Origin: a virus
IMG/VR virus record: IMGVR_UViG_3300035698_017294
Location: 42,198-106,197 of that record
Reading direction: 5' to 3' (one strand)
Length of the DNA: 64,000 nt
Under the pieces are notes generated by a model. That model was not told the origin of the DNA and did no database searches. It saw nothing but the letters and a program-made list of their open reading frames with translations. Both the position numbers and the translations under genes were made by a program. Shown piece by piece: positions 27,087 to 40,611 of this stretch (its first letter is position 1; each line of letters begins with the position of its first letter).

Positions 27087-27888
27087 CTTACCACACTTGC
27101 TTTCACAAGCCAGCTATTAAGCTGTTGTAGTCTGGACTATATCATCATCTTCAGCATTACCTGCTAAGAGCCCGGCGTATAGTCTCTGAGGGGTCATTAC
27201 AGACTTCCCTGCGGATTGCCAATTGTTTCATTCTACACATTGTTACTTGACAAATCAGTCCAAATTTGGTAGACTTGTAGTAGTGCAGACTTTACGGGTT
27301 TCCCGCATATAGCCAGGTTCCATCTAATTATTTCTAACCAGAGGCTCAGATTCATGAAAAATATATCAAAAGATGTTTTGTCAGAAATGTATTTAACGCA
27401 GAAACTTAATCCATACGAAATAAGTAATATACTAGACTGCGATCATAAAACAGTTCGTAGATACCTAAAATTACATAAGATACAACTACGTACTGCGTCT
27501 GAGTATAATTACTTACCTCGAGTTTCGCATACTAATCCCACTAAAATAGAGTATATGCAGCCTAAATCAATAGCGGCGCATATTGCCTATTTATGCGAAG
27601 GTTGGCACACTAATAAAACTAATGGGCTTTATTTCTGTAATACAGATCCAAATTTAAATGATCTCATGTTGTGGTGCCTCAAAGAGATATACAATGCTAA
27701 AACTATTAGATTGCGCATAATGGCAAAGTCTTTAGAGTCGGCAAAGCATTTATTAACATTCTATCCTAATACACCAGTAAGTGTAGAGTTAGATAGAAAG
27801 ACACCAATACTTAGAATTGTCTCGGGCGGGAAAACATTTGCTCGGGACTTCATTAAAAACGCTTATGATATAATTGATTCACTTGGTT
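27087..27888 (-). mobile_element. group I intron after U34 of tRNA-Leu
   Basis: 5' exon ends in U, intron ends in G; core motifs ATATGCGGGAAA, AATCCGCAGGGAAG, TCAGAGACTATACG, GATATAGTCC. Confidence 0.92.
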
Positions 27889-27931: not shown

Positions 27932-28015
27932 GTACAGTTAGAGGGACTCGAACCCCCAAGGTATCACAGTACCACAACTCTCACTGCGCGTCTACCATTT
28001 TCGCCATAACTGTAC
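27932..28015 (-). ncRNA. tRNA-Leu-like mimic with the anticodon arm reduced to a GNRA hairpin
   Basis: 9-bp terminal stem, Leu-type D-arm GGCGAAAATGGTAGACGC, CAGT-GAGA-GTTG, variable arm, canonical T-arm. Confidence 0.75.
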
Positions 28016-34292: not shown

Positions 34293-34682
34293 TTATTCCA
34301 CAATTTTTTGTTTTAATTCATCAAATGTTTGATGATGATAGCTCCGTTTGTGTGTGGATGGATCCACATGTACGAACACTATTTTATCAATTGAACAGAT
34401 GACAGTGTGATCTGTTTTATTGCGTACTTCGCAACAAACAGTATATGAAGTCTCGCCTACGTCGATAAGGTCGATACCAATCTCAATAAGGTCACCCTTA
34501 CGTGCGGGTTTCTGAAAGTTCACTTCGGATATGAGTTTTGTGACAATGCTTTTCTTGCCTGTCTTATACATAACCCATGCAGCCGCTTCTTCATCCACCC
34601 ATGCTAGTAATTGTCCACCGAATAAAGTATCATGGCTGTTTAAGTCTTGATACCTAATCAAATGGCTTGTAGTAAATTCCAT
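34293..34682 (-). CDS. acyl-CoA thioesterase (hotdog fold)
   Basis: DLNSHDTLFGGQLLAWVDEEA, VGETS, FVHVD. Confidence 0.9.
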   Translation of the reverse strand: MEFTTSHLIRYQDLNSHDTLFGGQLLAWVDEEAAAWVMYKTGKKSIVTKLISEVNFQKPARKGDLIEIGIDLIDVGETSYTVCCEVRNKTDHTVICSIDKIVFVHVDPSTHKRSYHHQTFDELKQKIVE

Positions 34683-35977
34683 TACATCCCCCTCGTTTTG
34701 CCGTGCACATGTTTTACTGTTGGAAAGCGTAACGAATATTGCTTCGTTTTCTGGTCTCGAGTTTCTTCAAAATACTGGACTGTAATTAGGTTGCCAATTA
34801 TAGCACCGGGGTTGTAGTGGTATTCTTGCCTCTGTTCCAAAGACCATCCAGACCCCACGCCAACCTCATTGTCGCGATACATTATAATTGCTTTAGTCAT
34901 TGTAGTTATTGTGTCTTCTAGTCCGGTTATTTTATTAATGATGCGGAACGGCCCAGACTTGATTCTGGTTACTGTAAACTCTGCATCGTGGAACTTTTTA
35001 AGCTTTAACAGGTTTTGCGTACGCTTACCTTCGTACGGCACATCTTTGCGAAGCATTGCACCTTCCCAGCCCTTTTTATTAGCGGCCGCAAAGAAGTCTT
35101 CAAGGTCTTCAACGCTGTGAACTATACGCTGGTTTAATGGTTTTAGGATCGTATTTTTGCGACCAATTGCTTCATATCGTAAGATGCGCTTTGTTAAGTC
35201 GGGGGATTTCTTTTTACCCTCAAACTCGTCAAGTGTTAGCATATCAAAAATCATGTATCTGGGATTTTGTATCACATGCTTTTTCTTGCGTATCTGCTTC
35301 ATTACGCTAGCAAAGTCTTCATTGCCGTGATCATCTATGATACATATTTCGCCATCAAAAACAGTATTACGTAGATCTAGTTTTTTAATTTCTTCAATAA
35401 CCAGCCCGAGTGTTTCTATGGGCTTGCCTGTTCTAGTCCACGCTTTAATATTTCCATCAGCCCCAACTATGATAATGCAGCGCACACCATCAAGCTTCCG
35501 TGATATATACCAGCTAGTTTCATATTTGCCGAACGTTACTCTGTGTATAAACTCTTTGTACTTCTCGGCTAGCGCAACCTTAAACTCCTTTATAGAGCCG
35601 GGCCAGACTTGGTTAATTTGTTTCACACCCAATCGGACCTTTAGGTTTTTATCCAACATCATGTGGACGATGTCTGCATATACTGGATACTCAGCTATAA
35701 AATGGTTAATATAGTTATGTGCCTCGTGCCCTGTTATTTTGCGGGAAGCTAAATCATCAAGCAGTGAGAATATATCCAAATGTATTTCACAGTCATCTTC
35801 CATATACGCTGCCTTCGTTAATGCTGCAGATGTTATCCCGTATGTCATATCAGGATCGTGTGCGTATATAAAATACTTTTTCAAATCTTCGTAACTTGCC
35901 AAGATGATTTTCTTAGCTGTCATCGAATTAGTTGTGTTTAGTTCATCTAAACATTCTTGTAATCTCTTTAAACTCAT
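34682..35977 (-). CDS. ATP-dependent DNA ligase
   Basis: KLDGVR, FDGE, WEGAMLR, LLKLK, VGSG, SLRFP. Confidence 0.95.
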   Translation of the reverse strand: MSLKRLQECLDELNTTNSMTAKKIILASYEDLKKYFIYAHDPDMTYGITSAALTKAAYMEDDCEIHLDIFSLLDDLASRKITGHEAHNYINHFIAEYPVYADIVHMMLDKNLKVRLGVKQINQVWPGSIKEFKVALAEKYKEFIHRVTFGKYETSWYISRKLDGVRCIIIVGADGNIKAWTRTGKPIETLGLVIEEIKKLDLRNTVFDGEICIIDDHGNEDFASVMKQIRKKKHVIQNPRYMIFDMLTLDEFEGKKKSPDLTKRILRYEAIGRKNTILKPLNQRIVHSVEDLEDFFAAANKKGWEGAMLRKDVPYEGKRTQNLLKLKKFHDAEFTVTRIKSGPFRIINKITGLEDTITTMTKAIIMYRDNEVGVGSGWSLEQRQEYHYNPGAIIGNLITVQYFEETRDQKTKQYSLRFPTVKHVHGKTRGM

Positions 35978-37133: not shown

Positions 37134-37148
37134 ATAAAATAATACAAT

Positions 37149-37328
37149 TTACAACTGCTGTGCTGTTACGCCAAAGACGGTGGGAAAGCGCTCCCAATGC
37201 CGCGGGCTCCCACGCCTTTTTCTCGGGAGTACCATTTAAGTTACCGCTCCTCTGGTTCGTTGCAGATGCAGGCCATCGGTGTCACTCTTTAAAGGGTGGC
37301 TGCTTCTAAGCCTACCTCGCCGCTGTAA
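37149..37328 (-). ncRNA. ncRNA family C copy 1: split mimic of the 23S rRNA GTPase-associated centre (H43/H44)
   Basis: GGTAGGCTTAGAAGCAGCCACCCTTTAAAGAGTG ... ~110-nt insert ... GCGTAACAGC, enclosed by TTACAGC/GTTGTAA. Confidence 0.75.
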
Positions 37329-37362
37329 GGTGTATTCATATGTTGTTGTGTAAATTTATGTG

Positions 37363-37542
37363 ATACAACTGCTGTGCCGAGTTTAAGTCGACTAAAGACC
37401 GCTATCCAGCTGTGATAGCTACGGACGGTTCCTCCTTCACAGGGAGGAAAAAATTATCCGCGACAATAGGTCGTTGCAAATGCAGGCTACTGCCATCAAC
37501 ATTAAAGGCTCGCGTAATTGCGTCAACACCTGGCCGTTGTAT
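37363..37542 (-). ncRNA. ncRNA family C copy 2, with the rRNA-like loops replaced
   Basis: Shares TACARCGGC, CCTTTAA, GCCTGCATYTGCAACGA, GTCTTT and GCACAGCAGTTGTA with copy 1; same 180-nt length. Confidence 0.7.
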
Positions 37543-37921: not shown

Positions 37922-38018
37922 TGGGGCACCCAGGACTCGAACCTGGAACCAACAGAGTCCGCAGCGTCATACAGCGCCGCTTACAGTCAGCTGCCCTAGC
38001 CAATTGAGCTAGCGCCCC
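37922..38018 (-). tRNA. tRNA-Tyr(GTA)-like with a 23-nt insertion at 37/38 (37958-37980)
   Basis: Removing GCGGCGCTGTATGACGCTGCGGA gives a 74-nt class I cloverleaf with loop CTGTAAC. Confidence 0.7.
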
Positions 38019-38180: not shown

Positions 38181-38209
38181 AGTATACTAAATTTAGATCT
38201 GCTTGTCAA
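38181..38209 (-). promoter_or_regulatory. consensus sigma70 promoter upstream of the ncRNA island
   Basis: TTGACA-17 nt-TATACT. Confidence 0.8.
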
Positions 38210-38672: not shown

Positions 38673-39560
38673 TTAAAAATTACCGTAGTTAACCTGTAAG
38701 CAAGTTAATCCGAGTTCCTTTCGCCACATATCTACAACTTGATCACGATCGTCCAGTACGAAGTCAACGTAATACTTGCCCTTCACATGTGCATCATATA
38801 GCTCACGCTTTACAAGGCTGTCCTTGCGATCGTCGCCAGGGTGCCGCATGAAAAGATCGGTATACTTAACTTTGTTATCAAACAACCATTCACGGGTGAG
38901 TGTCTCACATGATCCGTCGCGCCCAGATAAAAGTATCACGTGGCGAGTCGGATCTGCCATAATAAGGTCGTAAATAGGCTGACTAAGCGTGTCTAGCTTA
39001 ACCTTCTGGAATTCAAATGGCCCGCGATTACCGCGATGCAGCGCAAGAGTTCCATCAAGATCACAAATAATCGCACGTGGTAGAGCAAGATCCTGTACCA
39101 CCAAGTCAAGTTCAACATCTGGTTCTTTGATAAAGCTATCGTGGAAATCACGTATCACCTTTTCACCGACAGAGTTAGGGCAAACTAGGTCTCGGCGGAT
39201 GCACTCTTCTATAGGTACACTAAGGAAGTCCGTGTTGAGTTGTGCTACAACTGGATTTTTGCAACCCTCTTCCTTGTTGATCTCCTGCGCAATCTGCTGC
39301 ATGCGAGTCCAGTGCTTTGGGTGTAGATTTGTATCGTCTACAATAACACTGAAGCCCCCCTTTACTATTTGCTTTACCATCCAGTCGCGTGTTTTTAACA
39401 CAAGCTTTTCATTGTAAGGCGTCCACTTACCACCTAGCATCATACGCAGGTCGTCTTTGTTGACACGCTTGATCTGGCCAGGATGATCATTTACTTGTTG
39501 CTTCGCCCATGTCGACTTTCCCGACGCTGGAAGTCCCTTGACTACTATTATTTTCCTCAA
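38673..39560 (-). CDS. pnk: polynucleotide 5'-kinase/3'-phosphatase (T4 PseT-like)
   Basis: GLPASGKSTWA, DDTNL; HAD domain DLDGT, SGR, DDRDQV. Confidence 0.93.
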   Translation of the reverse strand: MRKIIVVKGLPASGKSTWAKQQVNDHPGQIKRVNKDDLRMMLGGKWTPYNEKLVLKTRDWMVKQIVKGGFSVIVDDTNLHPKHWTRMQQIAQEINKEEGCKNPVVAQLNTDFLSVPIEECIRRDLVCPNSVGEKVIRDFHDSFIKEPDVELDLVVQDLALPRAIICDLDGTLALHRGNRGPFEFQKVKLDTLSQPIYDLIMADPTRHVILLSGRDGSCETLTREWLFDNKVKYTDLFMRHPGDDRKDSLVKRELYDAHVKGKYYVDFVLDDRDQVVDMWRKELGLTCLQVNYGNF

Positions 39561-40611
39561 ACTTGATCCCCCTTTTTATTATTTTCCATATATACTCACC
39601 GGCTTTATCAAATCGCCTATCCCAAATATGGAACAGTAGGGCTGGATGCCGCTCCCGCTGAAAGCACTTAGCTACATACTTGCGCTCAGTATCAGGTGAA
39701 AGTTGCATCTTTTTAAGCGTGTTTAAGCCGCTGCGGATTAGATCGTCGTGCTTTTGATAAAACTTTGCGCATGTTTCGTCAATCCAATCCCAATGCTCTT
39801 CACCAGCGCCCTGGCGCAGGCTTTCAATCGGTTCACCTTTTATTATATAATCCAGCACAGTTTTCCCAGTCAGAGACATGCGTATACGTTGAAGCCGTTT
39901 GTACTCCTCGAACTTGACCTTCATTCTAAAGTCTTCTTTTGGGTAATACAAAACAAAGCCTTCTTTGTTCGTAAGATTAAGCTTTTGCGCACCAGCAAAG
40001 TCACGTGTTGCAATTGTATCAGCTGGGTATCGGTGCGGTGTGGGAAATCCTGGATTGTGATACGCTGTTTCTCCAAGCCTGTTGTCTATTGTTGCTACCA
40101 ATATAAGTTCTCTACGATCGCCGTAATTTATAACTAAACGATCTTCGGCGCGGTCGTCCGGATAGATGATTTCGAATTGATATGTCAACCCGTCTTTATA
40201 CTCTAAGCCACTATACTTTTCATTGAGGATTTTATTGGCTTGTATTGCCTGCTTGGAATCGAACGATCCACGTGTCGCTATGCCGCGGTAGTCACCATAG
40301 GCATACATAATGCCAGCATAGCCGTCCAGCTTATCGTATATTTCGAACTCGCTAATCGGTATTTCGCCGTCTTCTAGCTCATCAAAGTTAAAAAACTTGT
40401 ACAGCGGGCGAGAAATAACTTTCCAGTCATCATCAACAATCAATCCTCTGCACATCCTTACCGACAAGGGCCAGTACCAATCAAACATGGCCTTCTTGGT
40501 ATAGTTAAGTATCGATAATGGAATGGCTGGATCTGGATGATGCTGTAATCTTACGTACCCAGCATCCATCATATACTCAATATCTTTGCGCAGAGCGCCA
40601 TCGATAATCAT
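39487..40611 (-). CDS. T4 Rnl1-family RNA ligase
   Basis: CRGLI, KFFN, KLDG, ATRGSF, EGFV, KVKFEEY. Confidence 0.92.
   Translation of the reverse strand: MIIDGALRKDIEYMMDAGYVRLQHHPDPAIPLSILNYTKKAMFDWYWPLSVRMCRGLIVDDDWKVISRPLYKFFNFDELEDGEIPISEFEIYDKLDGYAGIMYAYGDYRGIATRGSFDSKQAIQANKILNEKYSGLEYKDGLTYQFEIIYPDDRAEDRLVINYGDRRELILVATIDNRLGETAYHNPGFPTPHRYPADTIATRDFAGAQKLNLTNKEGFVLYYPKEDFRMKVKFEEYKRLQRIRMSLTGKTVLDYIIKGEPIESLRQGAGEEHWDWIDETCAKFYQKHDDLIRSGLNTLKKMQLSPDTERKYVAKCFQRERHPALLFHIWDRRFDKAGEYIWKIIKRGIKFEENNSSQGTSSVGKVDMGEATSK

Follow-up and report, generated by a model that had tools for sequence, protein, structure and literature searches.

GOLLD (RF01998) and ROOL (RF03087) are structured non-coding RNAs (ncRNAs) of phages and prophages and are often found beside tRNA genes. 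Non-ribosomal RNAs that imitate an rRNA site are known from the mRNA leaders of ribosomal proteins, e.g. L10_leader (Rfam RF00557), where the site imitated is that of a stalk-region protein. These leaders are cis-regulatory, lie upstream of ribosomal protein genes and imitate the rRNA loosely, by shape. Phages also supply translation parts in the form of tRNA arrays, tmRNA and ribosomal proteins; both viral bS21 and the stalk protein bL12 are encoded by phages (PMC6375957). The pseudo-ToxI decoy is a phage RNA that imitates a host RNA, an antitoxin RNA repeat, and neutralises a host protein (PMC3475682).

The GTPase-associated centre (GAC) of 23S rRNA comprises the tip of helix 42 (H42), H43 and H44 (E. 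coli positions 1051–1108) and constitutes a 58-nt domain that binds uL11 and thiostrepton; Mg2+ and thiostrepton stabilise its complex with the uL11 C-terminal domain. An isolated GAC RNA of 58–60 nt folds and binds the L11 C-terminal domain; uL11 contacts on the RNA are at positions 1058–1060, 1062–1065, 1075–1083 and 1088 (PMC1802607).

A 180-nt ncRNA that closely resembles the GAC is found between the tRNA genes and the tmRNA gene of a salt-lake phage, on the minus strand at positions 37328–37149 of the 64-kb stretch of DNA analysed here (the window; the RNA is termed the window RNA). The nearest known systems, i.e. rRNA-mimicking leaders, viral ribosomal proteins, pseudo-ToxI and GOLLD/ROOL, all differ from it in kind. 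Unlike an L10_leader, the window RNA has no ribosomal protein gene nearby and is near-identical to rRNA. Phage tRNAs, tmRNA, bS21 and bL12 share its genomic niche and the theme of phage-supplied translation parts, and bL12 belongs to the same stalk region; these are working parts, however, whereas an rRNA domain of 180 nt has no way of being incorporated into a ribosome and must therefore act as an imitation. Pseudo-ToxI exemplifies the mechanism favoured here, but the window RNA copies a ribosome domain. There is no sequence or model match to GOLLD or ROOL, and the window RNA is much smaller than these, with a core modelled on rRNA.

The locus and its likeness to the GTPase-associated centre

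Read 5′ to 3′, the window RNA consists of UUACAGCGGC, GA, a hairpin GGUAGGC-UUAGAAGCA-GCCACCC, UUUAAAG, AGU, a 108-nt insert, UUUG, a hairpin GC-GUAACA-GC, ACA and GCAGUUGUAA. The rRNA-like segments are GGUAGGCUUAGAAGCAGCCACCCUUUAAAGAGUG (37316–37283) and GCGUAACAGC (37171–37162), and UUACAGCGGC is base-paired with GCAGUUGUAA (37158–37149). In E. coli 23S numbering the RNA corresponds to positions 1046–1090 joined to 1091–1113. The fold is a four-way junction formed by a closing stem, a copy of H43, the 108-nt extra arm and H44 with the A1095 loop (Table 1). The closing stem of the window has 10 bp with one G·A mismatch, and its compensated pair C1055–G1104 is unique to the window.

Table 1. 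Features of the window RNA and of its immediate surroundings (window positions).
Feature	Position	Strand	Remarks
Closing stem P1, 5′ strand UUACAGCGGC	37319..37328	-	Replaces tip of H42, rRNA 1046–1055
Helix 43 copy, loop UUAGAAGCA	37293..37317	-	rRNA 1057–1081; loop identical to rRNA; A1067 at 37307
Junction UUAAAG + AGU	37284..37292	-	rRNA 1082–1090; includes 1082:1086 lone pair and A1088
Extra arm, 108 nt	37176..37283	-	Between 1090 and 1091; base GAC/GUC
3′ junction string UUUG	37172..37175	-	Family-conserved
Helix 44 hairpin GC-GUAACA-GC	37162..37171	-	rRNA 1091–1100; A1095 at 37167
ACA + P1 3′ strand GCAGUUGUAA	37149..37161	-	ACA is 1101–1103; C1102 pairs with G1087
tmRNA gene, tag DEYLPLAA	36808..37133	-	Rfam RF00023 (88.3 bits) and ARAGORN
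Promoter-like TTGACA-17-TATACT	38181..38209	-	11/12 consensus matches; consensus match only

PMC1802607 prints a 60-nt uL11-binding RNA; compared with it over rRNA positions 1054–1105, the window has the same base at 41 of 52 positions. Of the 11 mismatched positions, six make up three compensated pairs (1054:1105, 1055:1104 and 1058:1080). The elements have the order and length seen in the GAC; the loop is identical in H43 and near-identical in H44, and the junction UUUAAAG matches. The phage RNA and the GAC are also alike in the covariation of 1082:1086 and 1058:1080, in G1087:C1102 and in the non-canonical positions 1060:1078 and 1056:1103. They differ in that the phage RNA is free-standing and encoded in phage tRNA arrays, whereas the rRNA GAC is part of 23S. 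In addition, the phage family has a covarying arm of 48 to >340 nt at 1090|1091, and the junction is four-way in the phage RNA but three-way in rRNA. Position 1101 is A in the phage RNA and pairs or stacks with a conserved G. The junction strings AGU and UUUG are specific to the phage family and the H42 part is an arbitrary stem.

A sequence-only reading of this DNA had proposed a split mimic of the GAC on the minus strand that keeps the A1067 and A1095 loops in order and carries no other rRNA sequence. This is borne out by the sequence, by homologs with the same split (see below) and by the 41/52 identity; both loops are present in the proposed order, and what flanks them is a private stem, the tmRNA gene and a paralog termed copy B. 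The insert described in that reading is also present, but it is not a loose spacer between two loops. It forms a covarying helix, and its point of departure from the 5′ strand of H44 is precisely between 1090 and 1091. Identification of the locus as a 23S gene or fragment was rejected because of the 108-nt arm inside H44, the private-stem flanks, the tmRNA, copy B and the lack of an LSU match.

The adjacency to tmRNA is real (a 15-nt spacer separates the window RNA from the downstream gene), but it is not a family trait, whereas adjacency to tRNA genes is. The tmRNA 5′ maturation site would define the 3′ side of the window RNA. A tRNA-His gene is situated 331 nt upstream on the same (minus) strand as the tmRNA and the window RNA, and the promoter-like site is upstream of a 97-nt tRNA, tRNA-His, copy B, the window RNA and tmRNA. 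ARAGORN does not call the 97-nt tRNA (37922–38018, minus strand), which Rfam recognises at 46.5 bits. It has the anticodon loop CUGUAAG (GUA, Tyr-like) and a long variable arm, and is the first gene past the promoter-like site.

The RNA cluster is directly preceded by genes for a T4-type polynucleotide kinase-phosphatase (Pnkp; PF25109/AAA_33) and an Rnl1-type RNA ligase (PF09511), and a gene for an ATP-dependent DNA ligase lies downstream (38673–40611 and 34682–35977, minus strand). The three are a tRNA-repair set that adjoins the tRNA array. Elsewhere in the tRNA-rich region there is a group I intron (RF00028, 63.3 bits) and an ARAGORN tRNA with a four-base anticodon (gttg), at 27114–27368 and 27932–28013 on the minus strand. 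No ribosomal protein open reading frame was found downstream of the window RNA. The source record (IMG/VR, 106 kb, 56% complete) has the H43 motif once; this record shows no phage-encoded uL11 and no RelA/SpoT-related or other stringent-response gene.

Contigs identical to the window sequence were found in DNA runs from four salt-lake metagenomes. Salt-lake DNA reads pile up on positions 37265–37326; these come from real 23S genes and from other family members, and the DNA runs yielded no microdiversity usable for covariation. No RNA run was found to contain the phage.

Family members and covariation of the fold

IMG/VR viral contigs were scanned with a 22-base H43/junction pattern, and members of this first set are thus selected on the H43 loop. 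The scan gave at least 90 viral-contig stretches, only 4 of which are contiguous 23S rRNA. In the others, the rRNA-like sequence is interrupted after AAAGAGU and continues 48–341 nt further on with GCGUA..AGC. With so few contiguous rRNAs among the matches and the same split in all others, the split GAC is far from a chance occurrence. The first set comprises at least 57 distinct sequences, the window included.

For the second set, a 16-base pattern for the 3′ junction, which is absent from real rRNA, was used with GTDB genome contigs, and up to 2 mismatches were allowed in the H43 15-mer. There were at least 114 genome-contig matches, and at least 36 of these are further distinct real members, mostly from metagenome bins labelled with many phyla. 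The number of non-member matches is consistent with the chance estimated for a 16-base pattern in 596 Gb; one sequence (L179) was discarded as a false positive. Homologs with the same split architecture are thus numerous. The two scans together give at least about 100 distinct members, which range from Pseudomonas to bins labelled Clostridia, Chloroflexota and Saccharibacteria.

A covariance model (R1) was built from 16 members with the window left out. It matches the window at 37147–37332 over its full length (model positions 1–168 of 168; 91.4 bits, E-value = 2e-31). This is a single copy, as R1 gives no other convincing match elsewhere in the 64-kb window. H43 with its UUAGAAGCA loop and the junction UUUAAAG-AGU are exact in the window. 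The family consensus past the arm is UUUG followed by GC-GUAAYA-GC-ACAC, and the window keeps the arm with GAC/GUC base pairs, UUUG, GCGUAACAGC and ACAG, the last base being compensated by C1055.

Rfam 15 shows no match over the window RNA even at E ≤ 10, LSU included. The expectation had been a fragmentary LSU match and no existing family; the latter proved correct, but the LSU match is not there either. A search of the available full-text literature, in which few subscription journals are represented, gave no description of a split-GAC RNA. The statement that the RNA has no named family thus agrees with Rfam 15 and the searchable literature, and the split-GAC phage RNA is apparently a large undescribed family. 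The approximately 100 split homologs, the covariation and the lack of an Rfam match support the view of a purpose-built, stand-alone RNA of 180 nt.

Covariation was analysed in a 30-sequence alignment. At 24 core pairs, 95.7% of cells are paired, as opposed to 38%–51% (maximum 50.6%) in controls with shifted partners. A covariation score of 0.618 compares with 0.12–0.17 in the shifted controls, and was reached by 0 of 500 shuffles. All nine family pairs of the closing stem (1047–1055:1104–1112) covary, both among the 57 members and in the 30-sequence alignment, which confirms the terminal stem as the closure of the element. The basal pairs x1–x4 of the inserted arm covary family-wide, and x1:y1 is paired in 57/57.

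H43 was proposed as a place to look for covariation, and compensated changes are found across the family at 1058:1080, 1057:1081, 1062:1076 and 1063:1075. Pair 1058:1080 shows four Watson-Crick types and is paired in all 57 members. In the second set, 1057:1081 goes from A:U to C:G, and compensated changes occur at both 1062:1076 and 1063:1075. Among the 33 second-set members with standard spacing, the lone pair 1082:1086 known from rRNA is U:A in 13, C:G in 15 and A:U in 3. The covariation of 1058:1080, 1057:1081 and 1082:1086 is exactly that expected of an rRNA-like fold.

Invariance of the loops partly reflects how members were found. As membership of the first set had required the H43 loop, the 5′ half was examined in the second set, for which selection was on the 3′ side. 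U1066, G1071, C1072 and A1073 are invariant in 36/36 second-set members, and A1077, A1084, A1085, A1088, G1089 and U1090 in the 33 with standard spacing; when the first set is included, A1088, G1089 and U1090 are nearly invariant. The exposed residues A1067–A1070 vary in 8%–19% of the 36, and A1067 is G in 5 of these. An invariant core with a varying A1067–A1070 fits selection for the fold and for the surface that meets the uL11 C-terminal domain. All of the contact nucleotides listed in PMC1802607 are kept or covary in the phage family, and the insertion point 1090|1091 is not on that list.

On the 3′ side, the four positions of UUUG are each kept in 53–56 of 57 members that were not selected for them. 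Members whose discovery did not depend on the H44 loop number 62, and in 57 of these the loop fits GCGUA[A/G/U]NAGC. Of the other five, three differ at 1095 (C, G and G), one has A instead of U1094 and one has a compensated U-A at 1092:1099.

Minimum-free-energy folding of the window sequence alone was uninformative (z = −0.76) and did not recover the GAC core. There is also an alternative register, in which UUUG (37172–37175) may pair with UAAA (1083–1086, 37288–37291) rather than under the arm. This would undo the GAC core and could represent a switch or a folding intermediate. The covariation of 1082:1086 favours the GAC register. The family keeps the GAC architecture, including the tertiary pair, and adds one helix between 1090 and 1091.

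The extra arm, copy B and the genomic neighbourhood

The arms of different sub-families are unrelated in sequence and range from 48 to >340 nt, but they are always inserted at the same place. Hairpins of the window arm are GCA-UC-UGC, GCGG/CCGC around CUCC(C)/GGAG with a purine-rich loop, and UGGGAG/UUUCCCA. Only L044 and L019, the two nearest relatives, lend support to these internal helices. The window arm is alignable only with these, and a sub-type pattern matched only the two and their duplicates.

One arm sub-family (L001, L002, L004, L007, L008, L026, L028, L031, L036, L042, L048, L059, L067, L070 and L082) displays a module GNCACC-CC[GNRA-type hairpin]GG-UAAGGNY with covarying flanks, and a strand pair AGUR...GAA (bulged-G-like) near the arm base. 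The module is absent from the window arm.

A sarcin-ricin loop, defined as an AGUA/GAA bulged-G module closed by a GNRA loop (a AGUACGAGAGGACC-like hairpin), was sought in the window arm and rejected. The best match is 12/17 with a CAGA (non-GNRA) loop, and it is absent or different in L044 and L019. Only one of the 57 members, L021, has a convincing sarcin-ricin hairpin (AGUACGGGAGGAA).

Copy B (37363–37542, minus strand) is a paralog situated 34 nt upstream of the window RNA. The closing stem is retained, through a compensated change of U-A to A-U, and so is the arm motif GCCUGCAUYUGCAACGA. At the places of H43 and H44, both GAC loops are replaced by other sequence. Copy B shows no match to model R1 and has no relatives among the loci examined.

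With respect to location, tRNA or tmRNA genes are found within 1 kb of 42 of the 57 members, and the other 15 have none. All of the 149 nearby tRNA/tmRNA genes are on the same strand as the RNA. In 32 of the 57, such a gene is within 35 nt when counted from the core, i.e. a few nucleotides from the closing stem. These strand and distance counts indicate that the RNA behaves as one more unit of the tRNA array, and the enzymes responsible for maturation of its neighbours presumably define its ends. There is no protein family common to the neighbourhoods: the commonest clusters (DNA methylase, HNH and SSB) are each found at no more than 8 of 93 loci. The lack of a shared neighbour protein points to a partner encoded by the host.

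The copy in Xanthomonas phage XacN1 (L209, 27–677 and ~692–929) comes immediately after a gene annotated as 2′-5′ RNA ligase, and its junction has AAU in place of AGU. Together with Pnkp/Rnl1 in the window, this ligase is suggestive of an RNA-repair or translation-protection setting, which is not general in the family.

Possible functions and cultured carriers

From its sequence, the window RNA is likely to bind uL11. The contact nucleotides are kept or covary, the insertion is outside the contact list and the isolated domain is known to bind; in principle, an arm inserted at 1090|1091 might get in the way of uL11 or disturb the fold. We consider it somewhat better than an even chance that the RNA is a stable, trans-acting ncRNA with a uL11-binding GAC fold, the leading use of which is as a decoy for a factor that reads or attacks this site.

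In the proposed mechanism, an RNA of ~180 nt would be transcribed together with the phage tRNAs and tmRNA and cut free by their maturation enzymes. Its four-way junction would reproduce the GAC (the tip of H42, H43, H44 and the nucleotides of the tertiary contacts), with one arm that varies by lineage. Off the ribosome it would bind host uL11 and present a free imitation of the stalk base. The decoy could then draw off a GAC-directed toxin or defence effector, or else RelA or a translation factor, and in this way would protect phage-directed translation.

The decoy reading is favoured because the RNA is found among translation-protecting genes, because the GAC is a proven toxin target and because a sarcin-ricin loop has been added in a relative (L021). 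The toxin is Tre23, which ADP-ribosylates H44 at positions 1095–1098 (PMC8661411). Very high RNA levels would be needed to divert a catalytic toxin, or to absorb a protein carried by tens of thousands of ribosomes, which weighs against this reading. So does the fact that we know of no anti-phage system that targets the GAC. Readings that depend on A1067 are weakened by the occurrence of G at this position in 5 of 36 members. Sequestering of the stalk proteins uL10/bL12, which the sequence-only reading had offered as a function, is unlikely as stated, since the stem in place of H42 varies in sequence.

RelA depends on uL11, as seen in relC mutants. The RNA could thus soak up free or exchanging uL11, and with loss of this RelA-needed protein no (p)ppGpp would be made when phage translation drains amino acids. 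A sink of this type is nearly as good an explanation as the decoy, although we give it a low probability. It agrees with uL11 being the one ligand known to bind isolated GAC RNA tightly (PMC1802607), with conservation that favours the uL11 C-domain surface over A1067 and so fits the relaxed A1067, and with the heavy investment of the carrier phages in translation (tRNA arrays). On the other hand, ribosomes without uL11 translate poorly and the phage would also be hurt, the stoichiometry is demanding, and the 106-kb record (56% complete) has no stringent-response gene. The remaining explanations are progressively less likely in the order given here. The GAC fold, perhaps with uL11, may serve as a nuclease-resistant handle for an arm that is the working part, a payload that differs by phage. 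The fixed place of the arm, its range of lengths and unrelated sequences, the arm modules shared within some sub-families, and copy B, which keeps the arm motif and closing stem without either GAC loop, are all in keeping with this. A scaffold is improbable, however, as it is only the GAC core that is conserved over ~100 members and many host phyla, including loop bases that a mere scaffold would not need, and the shortest arms (48–65 nt) leave little room for a payload.

Direct binding of translational GTPases (EF-G, IF2 or the EF-Tu ternary complex) or of RelA, with the RNA as a sink or platform, is more improbable still. Binding of EF-G to oligoribonucleotide mimics of the thiostrepton and sarcin-ricin domains is the subject of a 1997 PNAS paper by Munishkin and Wool, going by its title as cited in PMC3496166, and L021 carries both the GAC and sarcin-ricin elements. 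The window copy, however, lacks the sarcin-ricin hairpin and its 12/17 match is not common to the nearest relatives; A1067 varies in part of the family; and loss of elongation factors would harm phage translation. A cis element of the tRNA/tmRNA transcript, i.e. a signal for processing or folding or a leader of the ribosomal protein type, would explain the invariable location of the RNA on the tRNA strand and its frequent direct adjacency to tRNAs. This is nevertheless very unlikely with no ribosomal protein gene or conserved open reading frame downstream and with the 15 of 57 members that have no tRNA within 1 kb, and an exact GAC replica is needless for a processing signal. Real 23S pieces do occur in phage records (4 of the 90 or more viral-contig matches, and Pd_22F, below), but a dead, captured fragment of host 23S or an assembly chimera is refuted by the family data and has a negligible probability. 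The ~100 independent members have in common the split point, a closing stem that covaries and is not rRNA, and the lack of flanking rRNA; complete genomes of cultured phages are among these, and the window sequence is unchanged in contigs of four salt-lake metagenomes.

A broader form of the decoy reading, for which we have less confidence and which is at best possible, is that phages of many bacterial phyla use the GAC replica to load uL11 into an off-ribosome particle that traps or misleads a defence effector, a toxin or RelA. UUUG/UAAA would perhaps act as a switch that exposes the replica only with uL11 or Mg2+ bound. If true, RNA that counters defence by mimicking a ribosome domain would form a new class. 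If the decoy role holds, this would be the first known case of a trans-acting RNA modelled on a functional centre of the ribosome, and there would be a host process aimed at the uL11/stalk-base site that is important enough for many unrelated large phages to counter. The RNA also provides a classic RNA-protein model system in a compact, naturally occurring version with a four-way junction.

Direct testing is possible since eight cultured phages of laboratory hosts carry the RNA. The split form was found in Pseudomonas phages pf16, UNO-G1W1 and Milchi, Cronobacter phage GAP32, Pectobacterium phage CBB, Xanthomonas phage XacN1 and Aeromonas phage 4_4572; the eighth, Pseudomonas phage Astolliot, was identified by motif match alone. 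Paenibacillus phage Pd_22F is not a member. Its sequence (L211, ~680–760, near the record end) is a contiguous 23S fragment, AAAGAGUGCGUAAUA, which is host DNA or an assembly artefact.

The loci in cultured phages are either unannotated or overlaid by small “hypothetical” coding sequences on the opposite strand. Examples of opposite-strand coding sequences annotated as “hypothetical protein” over the RNA are at L212 769–876 (UNO-G1W1) and L213 727–858 (Milchi). These small coding sequences are probably mis-annotations, and such entries in some genome records need correction.
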